DNA of 61,249 nucleotides, filler included, from Globobulimina sp. (lineage: Eukaryota): assembly GCA_003354225.1 (NCBI GenBank). It is 21 parts of 21 records of this genome, joined end to end, with 100 filler letters (N's around TTAATTAATTAA, not from the genome) between each part and the next. Parts side by side here need not be neighbours in the genome. Positions count along the whole stretch, not along the records: positions 37,991 to 40,811 come from PIVH01004746.1; 20 more parts are not named here. One strand, 5' to 3'. Shown in pieces: positions 2,924 through 58,502 of this stretch (positions are counted from its first letter, which is position 1; each line of letters starts with the position of its first letter). The translations under genes were made by a program, and so were the position numbers. The notes beneath the pieces are model-generated. The model had not been told where the DNA came from and made no database searches. It worked only from the letters and a program-made list of their open reading frames with translations.

Positions 2924-4120
2924 TTCGCGAACAATGCAATCTCTCCATTCATTATCTACTTGATATTTATCAGATTTTTCATCCTCAAATCGCTCCACAA
3001 ATATATCACTCGTATCGCAAACACCTAAAGTTATCCCCATTGTCACGTATTCACTGTGACCAATACACATTGCTGGCATCCCAACGCACTGCACACCGGT
3101 CCACTGTAGGTTTTCTTCTTTGTTGTCATCACATTCAACAGTTAGATGGCAATAAAACAATGGATTTGGAGCATTTAAGGTCAAATGCGGATCATTGCAT
3201 AAAATTGGCTTGCCAGTATCTGTATATTTACCGCCAACTACAAATGCATTGGAAGCTGCTCCTTTTAAATCCATGACATTAATGGTGGTGTCACTGCTGT
3301 GGTTCATATCTTGTTCAACTTTTTCATCCTGTTCCATATCACCATTGTTTGTTGAAACATATTTTTGTTTGCTTTTAAAGTACGAATGTTTGATGCCCAT
3401 AATTGGCTGATTCTGTCGCTCCAATAGTTTGCCAATGTCCTTTAGTTTCATATAGAAATCAGCAGCGTTGTTTTGTGTGTCGTTGTATGGACATTGGTAT
3501 ACTTTCTCTGTATCAAAGCAAAACCATTCGGCATTGCGATAGCCAACAATTTGTATTAATAATGTTGAGAGCATTTTGGAATCCCAACCAGCGCTCATTT
3601 TGATGCCTAATAATCTGCCAACGCTCATTACATCGCTTTCAGTCCAATACTGCGGGTTATAATTTAATAATATTGTGCTTAATTCAACAGGTTTTGCAAA
3701 AGTTTCATGGGTTAGCCACGCATTAATACCTTCCACATAACACGATATCATATCAATTGCTGACTGGTATTTATTTTTCTTTCCGATAATAAATTCCCAA
3801 TCATTAATTCCTAACTGTTTAAAGTTGCATGTTCGCGAAAATACATCAATAGCTTTTCCTGGCAGACCGACTACGGAGGATAATTTACCATGAATTGCTA
3901 AATGTGTTTGAACTAATTGAAATAATCGATGTTGAGCGGTTACAAAGCCTTGTAATCTATAGCCATCTTTTCTGGTCGATGCATAAATATGCGGCACACC
4001 CCAGCGGTCGTAACATATTGTTGCTTGTTTATCTAATATCGGCAATGATATTGTACCATCCAATGGAGGTAAACGCGTCTCACTACTTTTCTCAATGCCA
4101 TACGAAACGGCAGCACCCAT
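2924..4120 (-). CDS. Penicillin amidase / acyl-homoserine-lactone acylase family Ntn-hydrolase (3' partial)
   Basis: N-terminal 'YDRWGVPHIYA...GFVTAQHRLFQL' and beta-chain start 'SNAFVVGGKYTDTGKPILCNDPHL' (nucleophile Ser codon 3251-3253). Begins MGAAVS. Confidence 0.92.
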
Positions 4121-4230
4121 GGTTTGAAGCGCGTATTAATTATTATATAACTCAAAAACAAAAAATAACCAACTTTCATCTTTTTTTCATCGAGATGTGG
4201 TATCGTGATACATTTCAAAAATAAATCAAT

Positions 4231-5746
4231 ATGCAACGAGAAAAGATTGTCGAAAAGTCAGACAGCACTGAGAACCCATCAATCAATGGTCGTTATCATC
4301 GGTTCAACGTGAAATTGGGCAAAGGTGCCTTCAAAGAAGTGTATAAAGCCTTTGATACCCAAAAGCAAATCGATGTGGCCTGGAATTCAATAGATTTATC
4401 CTTAGTGAATACAGAAGATGAGAGAAATAAAATTTTCAAAGAATGTAAAATGTTGCGACGCTTAAACCATCCAAACATCTTAAAAATAACCAACCAATGG
4501 CTCAATGATAAAACTGACAAATTATGTTTCATTACAAATATAGTACACGATGGCTCATTGGCGAAATTCTTTAGAAAACGGCAAGTAAATCTACTTCGCG
4601 TCAAACAAATATCAAAGCAAATATTGCAAGCCTTGTTATACCTGCATGGCAAAGGTGTGATACATCGCGATCTCAAATGCGATAATATATTCATCGAAGG
4701 TAATACTGGCAAAGTGGTTTTAGGCGATCTGGGCTTAAGTTGTAATGTGGTGTCCGCCCGTTCTATCGTTGGCACTCCGCATTGGATGGCACCTGAATTA
4801 TACAGAGGTATATAATATATATTATCCTTGCACATTAATATTAATATTGTATATAATATATCCTTGCACTCAATGTATAGAGGACTACGACGAGATGGTC
4901 GATATTTGGTCCTTCGGCATGTGCGTATTAGAGTTAATCACTTCGTTGATCCCTTACAGTGAATGCAAAGGGGCCTTCCAAGTGTACCAGAACATAACGG
5001 CTGGGAACAAGCCCGAAATCCTACAAAAAATCAACGATCCCGCAGTGAAGGCCTTTATTAACATATGCTTGAACGCATTGCCTAGAATGCGACCCTCTGC
5101 CAAGGAGTTATTAGATCATCCATTTTTATACAGGAAATTATCGGACACGACCTTATGTTCACAGTTGATGATCCCCAAAAATACGGAACCGAAACCCACC
5201 AAAACCGAGCAGAAAGAAGAAGAAATGTTACAGCAATCGTTGCGACCACCCATTGATAATATGAATAAAGCTAAAAAAAACAAGGCAAATAAAAAAAACA
5301 AATCTAAAAAAAATCGCCATTATTTTCGCCCCGAGCCTGCAACTTCGCCGCCGCCACCCTCCAATTTGCCAGCCTCTGCATTGAACATTGAGAGTAGCAA
5401 TACCTTACAAAAGCCGGTAAAGTCTAAAAGGGAGAAAGTGGATATAAAGAAAGTGAAAAATAATGGCGATACCATTCGCATTAAACTGCAAATTGTCTGC
5501 GCCAAGTTTAGCAAACCGATGAATGTAGAATTCGATTTCTCTCATAAGCAGGAAGAAGCTGCCTCGGTGGCAATGGAAATGACGCGAGATTTGGAATTAC
5601 CGACGAAGTTTACAGATAAAGTGGAGAAGGCCATCCGTGGCGCCATTGCCAAAGCCAAAAAGCAGAAGAAAGTGGGCATTGCACTACCAAATAAAAGCAA
5701 TGTAGCCATCGATATTTCCAGTACTGGCAATGAGGGCGATTCTCCA
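4231..5746 (+). CDS. WNK: WNK-family Ser/Thr kinase (3' partial)
   Basis: 'GKGAFKEVYKAFD' has Lys in the Gly loop and 'VAWN' lacks the beta3 Lys. Also HRDLKCDNIFI, GDLGL and GTPHWMAPE. Intron 4808-4880 joins YRE|DYDE. C-terminal CCT-like 'VEFDFSHKQEEAASVAMEM'. Confidence 0.93.
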
Positions 5747-5891
5747 NNNNNNNNNNNNNNNNNNNNNNNNNNNNNNNNNNNNNNNNNNNNTTAATTAATT
5801 AANNNNNNNNNNNNNNNNNNNNNNNNNNNNNNNNNNNNNNNNNNNNAAACGCATACATAAATATATATATATATATCGTACGTATACGCAG

Positions 5892-11692: not shown

Positions 11693-14435
11693 CAAGTATG
11701 ATTCCGATGTAAAATACAGAAGGCGTCGACTTATATTGGTCTTCAACAAACAATTTTTCTTAGTATTCTTCGAAATCGACGAGAACAGCGATTTGCAAAC
11801 ACCGCGCGATATTTGTAACTTCATATCCGTACTCAATCCATATTCCTGCGGCATCACGAACGAAGCCAACAACTCCGTCAATAGCCACAAGCGACGCAGA
11901 GGCAGCTTGCGTAATATGTGCCGATTATGCAACAAGTCATAGCGACACGAATCAAACACGTCCGGTATCTTACTGCAATCAAACTGTTTCTTGTCAATGT
12001 CGTACAGTTCGTCGATGATCTTATCCCATCGCTGTTTCATAACTAACGGAGACTCATCCAAATACGGCTGTTTTTTATTACTTTTTATATTCTCCGACAA
12101 CACCCTTTGAACTCCCAATAATATCTCATACAATTCCTGGCATTTCACAATGGGATTTTGCAGCTGTTTCAACATTCGCTGGGCCCACGGCAACAACTTA
12201 TAGGTCGGCGACGACATATTGGATGTCAACAAATCGTTGTCTTGTATGGACTGTGCCGGCGCCTCGCTGTCGGCGTACAACACCACACTTTCCTGATCTT
12301 CTTCCTTCGGCTCTTTGGCATCCGTCTCAATGCTGTTTGGTTCATTGAACTCTGGCTCGAACTCAATCATTTCAATCTGCTGCGGCATGATATCGTCGCC
12401 ATCGTCGTCGTCGTCGACGGCCAATAGCGATTCGCGTAGTTGCTGATTGTAGAAAATGTGCCCAATCTCTTGCTTGGCCTTATTTATCAGCGACTTTACC
12501 GGCGATATGTCATCCAGCATATACTGCACTTGTTTGTTTGCAATCAGATACTTGTTTATGTCCTCGTCTTTCAAGTCTTGATCGTTGAGCAAGTTCTTAG
12601 TGAACTCCTTGGCGGTTTTACGTACGCGGATTTCGTCGGTCATGAAAACTTGCATATTCAGCAAGAACTTCTGCTGGTTCTCCCGCGTGGTTTGCAGCAA
12701 AGTGTCGCGGAATTTGGGCGCGAACTCCTCGCACTGTTTGATGCCGGCGGGCGTTAACTCGCCGCCCCATTTCAAGATACACAGAGCGATGGTCGGCTTG
12801 CCATTGGCGTCCACCTCGCAAGCTTTGAATTGCATTTTGATGGACATTAGTTTCATGGAAGCGATCTCGGAGATGCGTAACCATTTGTTTTTGCCGGTTT
12901 CCTTGTATAAGTCGTGTGCGGTTTTGGCGAAGCCTAAGATCTTATCGCTGTGGTTCAAATACGTCCATTTCAGTTTGAGTTTCTTTGTCGAGGATATCAA
13001 ACTGATCACACTTTCCGTGTGCGTCGAACATTTGTATTTTTGTTTGGGCGTTCGGTCGCCGTGGCGGAATATGCCAAAGATGCCGCGTAAAATGTGCATC
13101 TTTTGTTTGTCGATGAAGTAATTTACGTTTTCATCTTCATCTTCACATTCAAGCACATTTGTATATCGACCTGGCGATAACACGGATTTATCAAATTCTA
13201 AACACATTAATCTTAACGAATTATGATGTGGGATTAATTGCGATGTGACCAGCAACTTTTGGCAGTTCCAGCAATGTTTTTTATCCATTACACTTTGGAA
13301 ATGTCAAAGGTTGCAGGTTACATTTCTGTAACTGCCATGATCAGCAGTTGTTAGTCGAAGTGACGGTTTTTCAGACTAACAATCCTGTCATGGCAACTAA
13401 AGACTGAATAAAACAACTGTGACAGCAAAAATACCTTAATCTCTGCGCACAATCATCAAAATATTTCCTATTATTTTTCACAAAACTCCATCCATTCACA
13501 TCAATCACAAAAGGCCTGCCATCTTTACTCCGCACAATATCAAATCCACACACATTCTGATCAAATGCATGCACCACTTTCTGTGCTATTTTCTTTTCAT
13601 ATTTAGTCAAGCGACACTTATGCCGCACTTCTTTATTAAACACATCGCGTTCCACAATGCCGTCGACCGTGGGCGCCTTCCGGGTCTCTGCGTGCACATA
13701 TTTAGAACCCACGGTGTAAGCTTTTATATCTATATTGGACTGGATCAGTGCTTCGTAAATATACGAACCGGTCCTACGAATACATGAACACGAATGCGGC
13801 TCAGAGGACCGGTTACCAACTTTGCGGAATAACCGCCGCGAACCACCACCTTTATAATATACATAAATATGATGGTCCTCTGCGTCCATTGGCTTCTCCA
13901 CAAAGGGTTTGCGAATAGTTACGCCGTTCACTATTATTTTGTCATCGTATTCTATCACACTGTAATTGCTATCGTTTCTGTCCAACACTGCATAGCGCGG
14001 CGTAGGGATATTGTTTCTGAGTAAAATATTCTTTATCGACAGTCTGTTGCGTAATAAAGTTTGCGATTTTAAATTATTTATCAAACACGGCTTGTACTTG
14101 TCGCAGTACGTTATTACTTTGTCCGTTGGGAAGCCTTTGCTGTAATATGCAATTAATACATCGCAACGTGGCCACTCTTCGATGGGCTTCTGTTGGAGTA
14201 TGGCATCGCCAAATGGGATGATGTCGATATCACCATAAGCTTGGATGCGAGATCGCACATTCTTGGCTCGCGCCGAGTTGAACTTTTTGTCCATGCAACT
14301 GATTCCTAAACGAATCTTATGCACTTTGTCATGCATGTGTAGTTGGCCTGGGATAGACTTAGTGTGCACCATCGGAGATGGTTGTAAATCTGTGGGGATC
14401 TGTTCTTTTATTTCACTGAATTTTTTGGTTGACAT
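11693..14435 (-). CDS. VIP1: PPIP5K/Vip1 bifunctional inositol pyrophosphate kinase/phosphatase (3' partial)
   Basis: ATP-grasp kinase motifs 'KPFVEKP..AEDH', 'RKAPTVDG' and 'IDVNGWSFVK'. Phosphatase motifs 'RHGDRTPKQK', 'LKWGGELT' and 'SKIPDVFDSCRYD'. Intron 13212-13434 joins DDCAQRL|RLMCL. Confidence 0.95.
13241..13397 (-). ncRNA. Candidate intronic H/ACA snoRNA or tandem pre-miRNA-like hairpins
   Basis: Hairpin 1 (13395-13333: TGCCATGA/TCATGGCA and TTGTTAGTC/GACTAACAA), ANANNA box ACAGAA (13329-13324), hairpin 2 (13318-13248: GCAAC/GTTGC, TTCCA/TGGAA, GTAATG/CATTGC), then ACA+3 nt (13246-13241). Confidence 0.6.
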
Positions 14436-14615
14436 GTTCAAACTTAGCGTGTTTTTGAGTGGAATATAAATTATTAAATTTAACATTATTTATTTGGAAA
14501 TTATAATTATGTATANNNNNNNNNNNNNNNNNNNNNNNNNNNNNNNNNNNNNNNNNNNNTTAATTAATTAANNNNNNNNNNNNNNNNNNNNNNNNNNNNN
14601 NNNNNNNNNNNNNNN

Positions 14616-37990: not shown

Positions 37991-39839
37991 GTTGCCCAAA
38001 AAGGCAGAGCATAATGTGACGTTATTTGAGAAAGCGCCCTCTATCGATGAGACTTTTAATAAACACAAATTCGTGGACCATACATCGAAGAGAGGGATCA
38101 AGAAATTCCCGCAGCCGCCGCTCAGTGAATGGGTCGGGCGATTCAAAACCATCCACGATTTGATGCATAACATATTGTCTGATAACTTGGTGGTTATCTC
38201 TTGCGACAAAGGCCTGGGCAAAACCGCTATGATTTGCAGGACTTTGCATTATTTATGGGATCGCTCCTTGTTAGACGGCATATATTACTTTAATATCTAC
38301 CAAATATTGAAGAAAAATCCATCGTTATCTATTGCTCAGATTGTGTTTCGAAGCATATATCCGAAGCAGAAGAAGAATAACATCAATAATAAAGACTTGA
38401 TTGCCATCTTGCAACAGGAAGAGGAGAATGGCGGCGGTAAAGGCGTCTTGATTGTGTTTGAAGATATTGACGAGTTTGAGTATGAACATTTGGCTGAAGA
38501 TCAGCGGATTGATATTTTCATCGAGGAACTATTAGGTTTGTGTGACACTGTTAAGTTATTGTTGACTTTGGGGACTCCGGTGAATCAATGCTCGTTTTTG
38601 GCGAAATTGGATAAGCGAGTGGTTAAATTGAAGCCGTTGAAGAATGAGCAATCCATTAAATTGCTGGAGATTTATTTGCAAAAACATTTCTCTTTAAATA
38701 AGATTCGGAGCAATATCCCATTGGAGAAAATTGCGTCGTTTTGCAAAGGATATCCATTATTAATCAAATACGCTGCCTCTCGCTTTCAAAACGACGATGA
38801 TTTGTCAAATTTGAACCTACGAAAGCAAATCCGGGAACAGGTATTGACTGAGTTCGAAGCGCTCAAAATGACGCGATATTGGAAGGAGTTGTCTTTGGAA
38901 CGCAATAATTTGCGAATTGGCGAATTAAAACAGCGGATTCGACAGCGAGATGGCCAGGAACTGTGGGAGGAAATGTATGGTTATCGCTCGCGCGGATTAT
39001 TGAATACATTGTTATATCGCATGAAAGAATGGTATCGAGAGCATGTCGGCGATGCGCAATTCAGATGTCGACCCATTTGGACCTATTACGAGTTGGAATT
39101 CATCCAAATGGAATTGTTGCCATTTTTGGCGAAAAACACAAAGTCTACGTTCAAACCGCCCAAAGAAGTGGTACAGCGGTTGGAGACCAATGATTATATA
39201 AAGATTATGGCGGACCACAACGGCAACAAAGCCAGTAAGAAGAAGTGGTATCATTTTGGGGGGAAACATAAGAATAAGAAGCCGCAGAGCAAAAAGCAAA
39301 AGGTTTATATGGCGGACGATGACGATGATAATAAGGTGTCTGAGGAGGAGAAGATACCCATTGAAGTATTTGCGGAGTTCTTTGAGTTTTGGAAGGAATT
39401 ATGGCGCACTATGATGGAGCCCAAAGTATCGCCGTTTTATTTTAAGAAGGATGAGATTTGTTTGATTGCAGGCATGATGTGCAAGGACAGGGCGTTGACC
39501 ATCATCTCGCAGTATGCCAAGGGCACTTTTTTGATTCGATTCAGTAAACAAAATGCAGGCTCGCTTGTGTTGGTGGTATCGACTGGTCCGGATCAGAAAC
39601 CATCGCAGCATAAAATTTATATAAATAAAAATATTGACGATGGGACCATCACTTTTGAGTATCAAACGGTGCGGAAAGGTATACATAGATCGAATTCTTT
39701 GTATGATTTGTTTAATCACTTACAATTTTTGGAACATTTATGGTATAAAAAAAGAGGCAATGATCAGGAATATATTCAAACGGATAAACGGAAAATATTA
39801 AAATTCTTTAAATCAAGAGCTGATGTTTGGAAATTGTAA
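37991..39839 (+). CDS. STAND/NB-ARC-like NTPase fused to a C-terminal STAT-type SH2 domain (5' partial)
   Basis: 'WVGR', Walker A-like 'CDKGLGKT' (38202-38225), Walker B 'LIVFEDID', 'LKPL...SIKLL' and GxP 'CKGYPLLI'. SH2 'IAGMMCKDRA...KGTFLIRFSKQNAGSLVL' (about 39465-39575). Confidence 0.82.
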
Positions 39840-40278
39840 ACTCATTCAGTCATTTCAGTGTCTATTCATATAGAATATATATGCTTATATATGTAAATTG
39901 TTATTGTTTTTGCTTTTTTTTGTTTCTTATTTTTTGTTTGCTTTTCTTGTCGATCATTGATATAAAATTCAAGCGGGTTTTTGCCGAATCTGATTTTGCC
40001 GAACTAACACCAGCTGTATATTTGCACTGTTAAGCTGTTCTCAATCTGATGTTGCAAGAGCACCCAATAAATATGTTCGATCAGAAACGGTATAACACAA
40101 AATGAGGGACCGTATAACACATAATATTAATTTAAAGCACAAAAACCAAACACATACAACAAATTCAACACAACACACAAAAGTTTATGTTATTATTGTT
40201 ATATAATTATATGATACGAATATCACAAAAATCGCTCATATTTTTTTTTCAAACTAGCACAAAAAAATATACTGTTTA

Positions 40279-40811
40279 TCAACGTTTTGAATCCTTGTAT
40301 CTGACAAATGCTTGCATTTGTAAATAAAGCATTTCTTCAATTGATTCATCAAAAATGTTGACTAATATATTTATATCAATATCATTATTATTCAGCCATA
40401 CATGTAAATCATTCATCATATCAATATATGTGTTTCTTAATATTGCAGAAATATTTATTTCTAACATGGTTTCTGTTTTAATATATTTTAAATATAAAAT
40501 ATATGATATAATTTTAAAATGTTTAATTAATTTTTTTTTATCCTTAAAGGCATCTACTTTGTCTCCATATGCATGATTATAAACAACCGAAGATTTTGGT
40601 GCAGATCTACATAATTCATAAACAAATCCCATTTTACAATTATCATCAATATCACCCGCATTATGATATTTATTATATAACATTAACAGATATTTTTTAT
40701 ACTGGACGAATTCGATGAAACTAAAAATTATTTCAGTTGAATACTCGTATGATAAATGAGCAACAAATAATTTAAATTCTTCATTATTTTTTAATACATT
40801 TAACAATTTTG
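40279..40811 (-). CDS. RGS domain C-terminus (probably of a 7TM-RGS protein), 5' partial
   Basis: 'FVAHLSYEYSTEIIFSFIEFVQYK' and 'LYLKYIK....EINIS...R', ending 'MQAFVRY'. Confidence 0.78.
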
Positions 40812-55511: not shown

Positions 55512-57454
55512 CATCTTTTTCCTTTTTTCTTTTTTTTTTCTTTTTTGATTTTTTCGATTTTTTCGAATGTTCGATGTCACCGTTTTTAACATTTCCTTTT
55601 CCTTCATTTTCTTGTTGATTATTCATAGGATTTATCATTAAATCGGGGATATTGACGCCTTCTTTCAATATATCAGAGTTTATGGAAGATTGCGACGTCG
55701 AAGAGTCTAAATTGCCATTATGTTCATCCTCGCTGTCTGTACTTGCAATTGTGGAGGAATCGTCATCCAAATCACTGCCATCATCCTCACTCTCTGTACC
55801 CGAAGACGAAGACGAATAATAATCCTCCAATTTGCCTGATATCATACCGCCGACATTCATATTATTACCACCCAAAACTTTCTTTTTTTGCAATTGCCCT
55901 TGCTTTGGATGATAACCTTCAATTAACACATTATATAATACATAGTTGCGATTTTGCGGTGGAAATACAAACTCAACTTTGTTTTTTCTGTGAATTGGAT
56001 TTCCTCGATTTCGACTTATTGGACATATTTGCGGGATGTGCGCCGGGCGCCATATTGTTGACATTGGACTGATGATATTGTTGCTGTTGCTGTTGTTTTT
56101 TTAATTTCTTATTATTTTGATGCATTTGATGGATGGCTTGGTGTTGTAACTGTTGTTGTTGATTATTTACAATGGGACCTTGGCCTTGCTGCTGTTGGTG
56201 TTGTTGTTGTAATTGTTGCTGTGCCGCCAATAATTGTCGCCGTTGGTGTTCCTGTCTTTGTTGGGCTAAATAATTGACATAATGCACATGGTCATTATTG
56301 CCGCGGCCGCCGGTGCCGGAATCATTTGGTTTACGGTGCGGGTTGTTGTTGTTATTGGGCGGTGGCGGCGGCACATTGTACCTTTGCTGAACCATTGGGT
56401 GTGGACTGGGATTAGACGACGACACTTTGGTCGCTTTCACAATCCAATCATAGCGGCCATCATTGACATAGCCTTTCTTCTTAAATAAGTCTTTAAATAA
56501 ATTCTTGAGGTATTTATAATCGGGTTTGGCGTTGAAATCTAATTTCCGGCAATACCGCAAATACTCTGCAAATTGTTTGGGTGCGGCGCTGCATAACACA
56601 TCGATGGTAGTCTCGCGCTTCACTTTGGAGATGCGGTTGTATTTTTGCGTCTTGCTCTTTGCTTTCAAGCCTTGCCACGGTAACTTGCCGCCGCGATTGA
56701 AATACATCAAGACATAGCCTAAGGTCTCTAGGTCGTCTCTCCGCGCCTGTTCATAGCCTAAATGTGTATTGATGGAGGCATAGCGGGCGGTGCCCGTCAA
56801 CGATTTGCCTTCGATAAACGGAATATGTCTGCGAGTTTTTGGGTTAATATACCTTTTGCTGAGACCAAAATCTATGATAAAAACCACATTGAAGTTATTG
56901 GTGAGGCCAATGAGGAAGTTATCCGGTTTGATGTCGCGATGAATGAATTCGAAGGAATGTACAGATTCTATGCGTTCCAGCATTTGCTGAGCTAATAATA
57001 AGATGGTTTTAAGGGAGAAATTGCGCCCGCAATAATTAAATAAATCTTCCAAGGATGGACCTAACAAATCCATCACTAATACAAAGTATTCTTCTTCCTG
57101 GCCATAAAAATAGACGTTGGGCACACCCACACTGCCTTTCATGTGTTTGTAAATACGGGACTCGTATTGCAATTGGGGGTGTCGTGTGTTTGCTTTTTCT
57201 AATTTCACAGCCACTTTATGTCCGGTCTCTACATGTGTTCCTTTGTAGATCACACCAAATGATCCGCTACCTATTTTTTTGCCTAACCGATATTGCCCAT
57301 TCGCCACACGGATCTCAAAGGGACGCCCATGGGAATGCCCATGGTGTGAATGGCCGTGATGCGATGAGCCACGATGAGACGAACTCGTCTTTTTCGACCG
57401 GTGGGAATGATGCCCACTATGTCGACCTTCTTTTTCTTTGCGAGAGAAATCAAT
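55512..57454 (-). CDS. CK1: Casein kinase 1 with His-rich N-extension and polyQ plus acidic/basic C-tail
   Basis: 'IGSGSFG', 'HPQLQYE', '[10 protein letters not shown]', 'HRDIKPDNF', 'GTARYASIN', 'RRDDLE', 'LPWQG'. Intron 55917-55977 links to the S/D-rich last exon. Start codon uncertain. Confidence 0.93.
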
Positions 57455-57651
57455 CTTGAATCAATAGATTTCTCTACAATAACTAGATAATTTAAATAAA
57501 TATTATTAAATATTTGTTGCTAATATTTACTATTTGTTATAGATCCACGTTTTTAAACTGCCCACATTACGCTCCTACAGTTAAACTAAAGTGGAAAATT
57601 GTTCGTAAATAGTTTACCAAAACATCTTGACTCGTTGCTGCAAATTGCAAA

Positions 57652-58257: not shown

Positions 58258-58502
58258 TGTACATTTATTTGACAGCTTTCATTGCATTGTAGCATTATTC
58301 TTTATCCTTTATATTGAGATTTATTTTTATNNNNNNNNNNNNNNNNNNNNNNNNNNNNNNNNNNNNNNNNNNNNTTAATTAATTAANNNNNNNNNNNNNN
58401 NNNNNNNNNNNNNNNNNNNNNNNNNNNNNNGTACTTGGTGCTTTTTATAAAAACAAATTAAAATCTTTATTATGAATTAATATGTCAAATATTCTTATTC
58501 AG

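Follow-up and report, generated by a model that had tools for sequence, protein, structure and literature searches.

A Globobulimina gene predicted to place a STAT-like linker and an SH2 domain behind a CHAT-STAND core

STAND/NLR switches are known to sense through repeats (LRR, WD40 or TPR). In Apaf-1/CED-4, in NLRs and in the CHAT-STAND proteins of bacteria and fungi, a C-terminal module governs the nucleotide-dependent assembly of the core, through which an N-terminal effector is activated. A winged-helix domain usually follows the lid in STAND proteins. We analyzed a 61,249-nucleotide stretch of DNA from Globobulimina sp. (assembly GCA_003354225.1), referred to below as the window, in which a plus-strand open reading frame (ORF; 37992-39839) ends neither in LRR nor in another repeat family but in a helical linker and an SH2 domain. 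The sequence of this ORF and of its relatives predicted a protein with, in order, a low-complexity N-terminus, a CHAT domain (a caspase-like cysteine protease), a STAND nucleoside triphosphatase (NTPase) consisting of a nucleotide-binding domain (NBD) and a GxP lid, a STAT-like linker and an SH2 domain.

The reading frame, its missing 5' part and its relatives

The window consisted of 21 contigs of 2819 to 2823 bases, ordered by size and joined via N44-TTAATTAATTAA-N44 linkers (2824-2923, 5747-5846 and so on to 58331-58430), which gave forty 44-N runs paired around TTAATTAATTAA. As these were contigs of a fragmented assembly joined end to end, genes on either side of a linker were not genomic neighbors, and the sole context of the STAND-SH2 gene was its own contig of 2821 bases (37991-40811). 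The ORF occupied 615 codons followed by a TAA stop (39837-39839) and formed the 3' part of the gene, being open at the 5' end because the contig ended there, with base 37991 as its first base. All of the motifs that the initial annotation had listed for a single ORF were located in this one frame: WVGR at residues 47 to 50, the Walker A motif C71-DKGLGKT-78 with Lys77, the Walker B motif L153-IVFEDID-160, a sensor-1 strand LLLT-LG-TP at 189 to 196 from which the Arg was absent, the GxP motif G253-Y-P255, FAEFFEFW at 459 to 466 and GTFLIRFS at 511 to 518. WVGR, both Walker motifs and the sensor-1 strand fell inside the NBD (approximately residues 34 to 215; 38091-38636), and the GxP motif and a long connecting helix fell inside the helical lid, HD1 (approximately residues 216 to 303; 38637-38900).

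The protein encoded by the window ORF (P0001) was compared with its relatives in an alignment of 36 rows (A2), from which all residue counts given below were taken. P0001 aligned with residues 548 to 1178 of the 1178-residue relative P0007, with 475 of 633 positions identical and no large gaps. The match of its start to residue 548 implied that about 547 codons, including those of the protease, lay beyond the contig edge, and the whole gene was estimated at roughly 1,150 to 1,200 codons. Pfam assigned P0007 a CHAT domain at 350 to 527 (40.5 bits; cut-off, 24), a NACHT domain at 614 to 782 and an SH2 domain at 1057 to 1137. The same domain pieces were present in P0002, P0003, P0005 and P0006, with a CHAT score (PF12770) of 47.3 bits against the cut-off of 24 in P0006. 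In relatives with 53 to 84% identity, a CHAT domain with His and Cys stood directly upstream of the segment that aligned with residues 1 to 12 of P0001 (LPKKAEHNVTLF; 37992-38027), and the catalytic residues were retained in A2 in 24 of 25 (His) and 26 of 28 (Cys) rows. Contigs of three other public sequencing runs extended across the 5' end of the window contig. In a contig of run X6, the 30 letters before 37992 continued the frame and were translated by eye into ten residues, nine of which matched the C-terminal CHAT sequence of P0007. These findings agreed with an earlier guess that the truncated N-terminus follows a CHAT/caspase-like domain. A search for longer homologues returned none among 4676 candidates, which is weak evidence.

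The assembly was very fragmented, and gene calling had divided the gene of one relative into two proteins (P0164 and P0004), as might be expected if the ORF were an artefact, whether a pseudogene, the product of a chimeric contig or a reading across two genes. However, a 615-codon open frame would arise by chance with a probability of ∼7e-22 given the base composition of the contig, the contigs of four other sequencing runs matched the ORF without reported joints, and the same domain order recurred in independent metagenome contigs and in ORFs of Trinity and MMETSP transcripts. The latter entries are transcript ORFs and indicated that the fusion is transcribed as a single unit in at least those species. 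An artefact was thus considered exceedingly improbable.

The divided relative merits a separate description. For both P0164 (the NTPase half) and P0004 (the linker-SH2 half) the longest contig listed had 2783 bases, P0004 began with 20 unrelated residues, and the window ORF was continuous across the corresponding split point. The division could stem from an intron or a frameshift, or it could be an error of the gene caller.

Among 6174 candidates, five were close homologues, with E values from 6.6e-275 to 1.9e-54. Two of these, like their cluster mates, were EukProt entries whose labels, Bolivina argentea and Nonionella stella, both denote Foraminifera. Between the Bolivina argentea entries (P0005/P0008) and the Nonionella stella entry P0007, 896 of 918 residues were identical and the main difference was one 20-residue repeat unit; such identity is odd for separate genera and could come from carry-over among libraries, so that the labels are perhaps not independent. 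When P0007 was scanned against 1.84 billion representatives, 1704 proteins were detected at an E value of ≤1e-3, 827 at 1e-10 and 85 at 1e-30, the majority of which matched the CHAT-NTPase part. A Pfam SH2 domain (E ≤ 0.001) was present in 25 of the best 150 relatives, comprising P0004 and 17 of 59, 4 of 53 and 3 of 37 proteins in three batches, and all 17 from the batch of 59 also had CHAT and a P-loop family. Seven candidates missed by Pfam (P0021, P0024, P0042, P0086, P0104, P0111 and P0125) came from a home-made linker-SH2 profile, which was circular for its own training rows and also gave four short matches that were doubtful. A word-indexed search with profile A2 returned 10 proteins, none of them from outside the close subfamily. 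At the position of the SH2 unit, sister CHAT-STAND proteins carried TPR (8 of 59 and 6 of 37 in two batches), LRR, SPRY, FHA or Arm domains, which indicated that a shared CHAT-STAND chassis takes up alternative modules, of which the SH2 unit is one.

Of 20 representatives whose records were consulted, five had organism labels, namely, Mataza sp. and Norrisiella sphaerica (Cercozoa), Nonionella stella and Reticulomyxa filosa (Foraminifera) and Mantamonas plastica (CRuMs); the remainder were metagenome or run assemblies. The Reticulomyxa filosa member was degenerate, with no Pfam match to SH2 or CHAT, and had been filed as 'hypothetical protein' or 'NACHT domain-containing protein'. A Mantamonas Trinity transcript (P0167) encoded CHAT, NB-ARC, Cbl_N2 and SH2 in that order. 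Overall, the sequences pointed to a divergent, unannotated STAND-SH2 family with labelled members in Foraminifera, Cercozoa and Mantamonas, and the protist setting (the SAR group) proposed at the outset fitted the labelled relatives.

The STAT-like linker and the SH2 domain

The SH2 domain (approximately residues 485 to 600; 39444-39791) was matched by Pfam (PF00017) at residues 500 to 576 with 22.5 bits, above the cut-off of 21. It contained Lys498 at alphaA2, Arg516 at betaB5 and Ser518 at betaB7, and we take a basic alphaA2 residue, the betaB5 Arg and the betaB7 Ser to be the phosphotyrosine-pocket positions of SH2 domains. In A2, the Arg was kept in 32 of 33 rows, Lys or Arg at alphaA2 in 30 of 33 and the Ser in 30 of 33. 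Some SH2 domains have other ligands: that of Spt6 binds phospho-Ser/Thr, and outside animals and amoebozoans not every SH2 domain reads phosphotyrosine. The SH2 domain described here might likewise recognize phospho-Ser/Thr or an unphosphorylated partner or might serve as an autoinhibitory lid packed on the STAND core, and the betaB5 Arg was lost in one fragment relative (P0152). The pocket was nevertheless kept in nearly all rows, and the best matches by both sequence and structure were phosphotyrosine-binding SH2 domains, which made a function of this kind quite improbable.

Between the lid and the SH2 domain lay a helical linker (residues 305 to 484; 38904-39443) that included the FAEFFEFW motif. 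When residues 305 to 615 were modelled separately, the predicted local distance difference test (pLDDT) value was 85.6 and the predicted template modelling score was 0.82. Every match listed by Foldseek for this model was an SH2-containing chain, and structural ranks 1 to 24 were STATs aligned across the linker plus SH2. The family profile matched the same two domains of Dictyostelium STATa (E value, 2.4e-26; chain residues 254 to 412) and of STAT5/6 (∼1e-20). A single-sequence search of the PDB with P0001 gave nothing significant (Lck SH2, E value of 0.67; RFC, 0.73), and neither Pfam STAT_linker nor Cbl_N2 matched the C-terminal half of P0001 even at E values of up to 1. Assignment of the linker rested on structure and the family profile, which supported a STAT-like nature for the linker-SH2 unit as a whole.

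The SH2 domain itself had been described in the initial annotation as STAT type, and this held for the linker-SH2 unit taken as a whole. According to a passage in PMC6895964, STAT-type SH2 domains are distinguished by an alpha helix (alphaB') that replaces the betaE and betaF strands between betaD and alphaB. Both of our models instead predicted two strands (residues 553 to 559 and 563 to 567) before alphaB (570 to 576), thereby leaning toward the Src type. In the models, the C-terminal half of the SH2 domain looks Src-like, and the linker-SH2 arrangement and the N-terminal SH2 motif look STAT-like, so that the region encoded by 39549-39692 (residues 520 to 567) may represent a mixed or intermediate form.

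A Lys/Asp-rich variable loop interrupted the linker (residues 383 to 442; 39138-39317). Its identity to close relatives was 31 to 47%, and model confidence fell below 50 at residues 410 to 442. The loop bears on whether the protein could associate with itself in the manner of STATs, with a phosphotyrosine in the loop or tail of one copy bound by the SH2 domain of another, driving oligomerization and protease activation. STATs dimerize by reciprocal SH2-phosphotyrosine contacts (PMC6895964), the module was nearest to the STAT linker plus SH2, and the disordered loop contained a partly conserved W-Y/F and Tyr residues. However, no loop Tyr was invariant, W-Y being W-F in P0002. The Y-I of the tail was replaced by F-I or F-V in P0002 and P0003, and P0001 stopped about 15 residues beyond the SH2 fold with no STAT-like tail. 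Self-association of this kind was considered unlikely.

Within the subfamily, identity to P0001 was 76 to 91% in the linker and 80 to 87% in the SH2 domain, the latter falling to 54% in P0003, while NBD identity was 62 to 74% in three full comparisons. The linker, and in three of four comparisons the SH2 domain, was thus more conserved than the NBD, which argues for a conserved ligand.

Coverage by other runs was uneven over this part of the gene. The summed contig depth of run X2, which is not a copy number, climbed from 161 to up to 1156 within 38846-39795 (linker-SH2), and in X6 and X8 many contigs that were 90 to 99% alike covered the same interval. Several close paralogues or alleles may account for both observations.

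The NTPase core and a possible phosphotyrosine-controlled switch

Pfam matched NACHT to residues 66 to 229 of P0001 with 25.0 bits (E value, 1.9e-5), just below the cut-off of 26.7, while relatives passed their cut-offs with 31.6 bits (P0003, NACHT), 46.6 bits (P0014, NB-ARC) and 48.1 bits (P0093, NACHT). From the sequence, the NACHT and NB-ARC classes could not be distinguished for this ORF. A protein atlas queried with P0001 recognized the STAND NTPase alone. In a model of the whole ORF built from the 36-row alignment (mean pLDDT, 83.7), the NBD and lid aligned structurally with ZAR1, Apaf-1 and CED-4, and these matches stopped at approximately residue 303. No Pfam match to LRR was found in P0001 or P0007, the C-terminus of P0001 being linker plus SH2, and the sequence would accordingly place P0001 outside the NLRs in the strict sense of NACHT or NB-ARC plus LRR.

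Within this core, the Walker A Lys and the GxP Pro were each kept in 29 of 29 rows of A2. Five of 29 rows, each belonging to the close subfamily, had Cys or Ser in place of the first Walker A Gly. The Walker B position was Glu in 6 of 29 rows versus Asp in 23 of 29, and the acidic D-x-D-E that follows it was retained in P0001 (LIVFEDIDE). An altered sensor 1 had been suspected previously, and the Arg was indeed absent from P0001 and from the entire close subfamily, being present in 8 of 30 rows. On account of these three changes (Walker A Gly to Cys or Ser, Walker B Asp to Glu and loss of the sensor-1 Arg), the NTPase of the close subfamily looks modified and may bind nucleotide with poor hydrolysis. 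The distant members of the family retained canonical GxxGxGK[ST] and hhhhD motifs.

A core modified in this way, together with the strong conservation of the linker and SH2 domain that a fixed partner would be expected to impose, is what a docking adaptor might display. The SH2 domain would then merely recruit the protease to phosphotyrosine-marked receptors, scaffolds or substrates, with the STAND core as a largely static scaffold deficient in hydrolysis. Against this, the invariant Lys and Pro and the canonical motifs in distant members, some with a sensor-1 Arg, suggest selection for nucleotide binding, and a purely docking role was considered unlikely.

The reading that we prefer, to which we assign a probability of about 0.5, is that the protein acts as an apoptosome-like switch in which phosphotyrosine controls STAND assembly and thereby activates the CHAT protease. 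What was observed is the anatomy and the conserved catalytic and binding residues; the mechanism was inferred by analogy with Apaf-1/CED-4, NLRs and CHAT-STAND proteins. The linker-SH2 unit would take the sensor position of an NLR-type switch, the slot held by TPR, LRR or SPRY in sister proteins. The SH2 pocket would accept a ligand bearing phosphotyrosine, which is probably an endogenous, conserved partner of the protein and the product of a tyrosine-phosphorylating kinase; high conservation of the SH2 domain and linker suggests a fixed ligand of this sort and not one made by a pathogen. Nucleotide-dependent STAND assembly would be released or promoted by this binding and would cluster the CHAT domains and turn them on. 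The proteases would then cut downstream substrates as part of an all-or-none response such as regulated cell death or defence.

Several points weigh against a switch of this kind. With Glu for the Walker B Asp and no sensor-1 Arg in the subfamily, the NTPase might not cycle. A winged-helix domain was not resolved between the lid and the linker by whole-model matching, in which this region was not searched alone. The SH2 domain is highly conserved, unlike the fast-evolving sensors of immune NLRs, and this weakens a reading of the protein as an immune receptor. For this copy of the gene the CHAT domain lies outside the window and is predicted from relatives and the 30-letter overhang, and phosphotyrosine binding, oligomerization and protease activity are all predictions.

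If a phosphopeptide reader occupies the sensor slot, the STAND switch would listen to a kinase pathway and not to a repeat-bound ligand. We tentatively suggest, as a possibility that is less likely than the switch itself, that in Rhizaria and Mantamonas (CRuMs) tyrosine-phosphate signalling was wired through a STAT-like linker-SH2/STAND protein to CHAT, so that a kinase signal would trigger death or defence by proteolysis in an all-or-none manner, and that the linker-SH2 cassette is an old module of eukaryotes that is mobile and not restricted to transcription factors.

Genomic surroundings and comparison with known systems

Downstream of the STAND-SH2 gene and separate from it, a convergent ORF of 176 codons on the minus strand (40279-40809) was open at the contig end. 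A Pfam search of this ORF found no family; the protein atlas placed RGS-domain clusters closest to it (score, 0.90; 180 shared features), which is a weak lead only. Contigs of X6 and X8 left 39986-40080 without cover, in X8 up to 40555, and the DNA runs were thin there too. A T-rich loose contig end at 39907 fell within a T-rich stretch.

The remaining contigs of the window carried ordinary eukaryotic genes (DOCK, FYVE-LIM, CAP-Gly, PPIP5K, Arf and protein kinases). Kinase domains at 4739-5746 (plus strand) and 55976-57460 (minus strand) matched the Tyr/Ser-Thr kinase family PF07714 with E values of 5.5e-8 and 7.3e-17. Two adjacent minus-strand ORFs, 11693-13303 and 13374-14489, encoded a PPIP5K-type N-terminal part (PPIP5K2_N, RimK) and a histidine-phosphatase part and probably belong to a single gene interrupted by a short intron. 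An ORF at 2924-4135 (minus strand) gave a strong penicillin amidase match (E value, 1.1e-61) in an assembly that otherwise looked eukaryotic, and may be either a gene of the organism itself or the trace of a contaminating bacterium.

In the literature searched, the CHAT-STAND-linker-SH2 architecture was not described, and no paper in that literature combined 'SH2 domain', 'NACHT' and 'CHAT domain'. Where PMC8195603 brings together 'STAND NTPase' and 'SH2', the passages concerned mention SH2 solely as the C-terminal domain of the TRADD-N family. A portion of PMC12314368 deals with TPR-CHAT proteins in corals, and the relevant part of the Physarum genome paper tabulates SH2 proteins by architecture for amoebozoans only. 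Within the limits of this literature, what is new is the use of a STAT-like linker-SH2 unit as a module on a known, STAND/NLR-like kind of switch, which places this cassette in a non-STAT protein. Foraminifera, Cercozoa and Mantamonas are lineages hardly covered in accounts of the evolution of phosphotyrosine signalling. For foraminifera, the gene also offers a concrete candidate through which proteolysis or cell death might be regulated, and its SH2 domain, NTPase and protease can each be expressed and assayed.

The N-terminal two-thirds of the STAND-SH2 family have their nearest sequence relatives in the CHAT-STAND sister proteins. The bacterial and fungal CHAT-NACHT and CHAT-NB-ARC proteins with TPR, WD40 or LRR resemble P0007-type members in having an N-terminal CHAT domain followed by a STAND domain with FxGR, Walker A and B and GxP motifs. 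These proteins end in repeat sensors, whereas the STAND-SH2 family ends in a STAT-like linker and SH2 domain. In comparison with the Apaf-1/CED-4 apoptosome and the plant resistosomes (ZAR1, NRC and Roq1), the predicted protease of the STAND-SH2 family is part of the same chain (in cis) instead of being recruited by a CARD; WD40 and LRR are lacking, the winged-helix domain is not resolved, and the sensor-1 Arg is absent from the subfamily.

The tyrosine-kinase-binding domain of Cbl (four-helix bundle, EF-hand and SH2) shares with the STAND-SH2 family a helical or EF-hand-like domain packed on the SH2 domain. Mantamonas members matched Pfam Cbl_N2 just before the SH2 domain (24.4 to 24.6 bits; cut-off, 22), whereas P0001 had no such match. 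Cbl-b aligned structurally over 232 to 233 columns, and STATs scored higher by structure. The RING or ubiquitin-ligase part of Cbl is lacking in the STAND-SH2 family. Unlike STATs, and in particular Dictyostelium STATa (1uur/1uus), the family has no coiled-coil, DNA-binding domain or C-terminal phosphotyrosine tail, and its betaD-alphaB region is predicted to form two Src-like strands and not a helix. In place of the domains that precede the linker in STAT transcription factors, the STAND-SH2 family carries CHAT and a P-loop NTPase.

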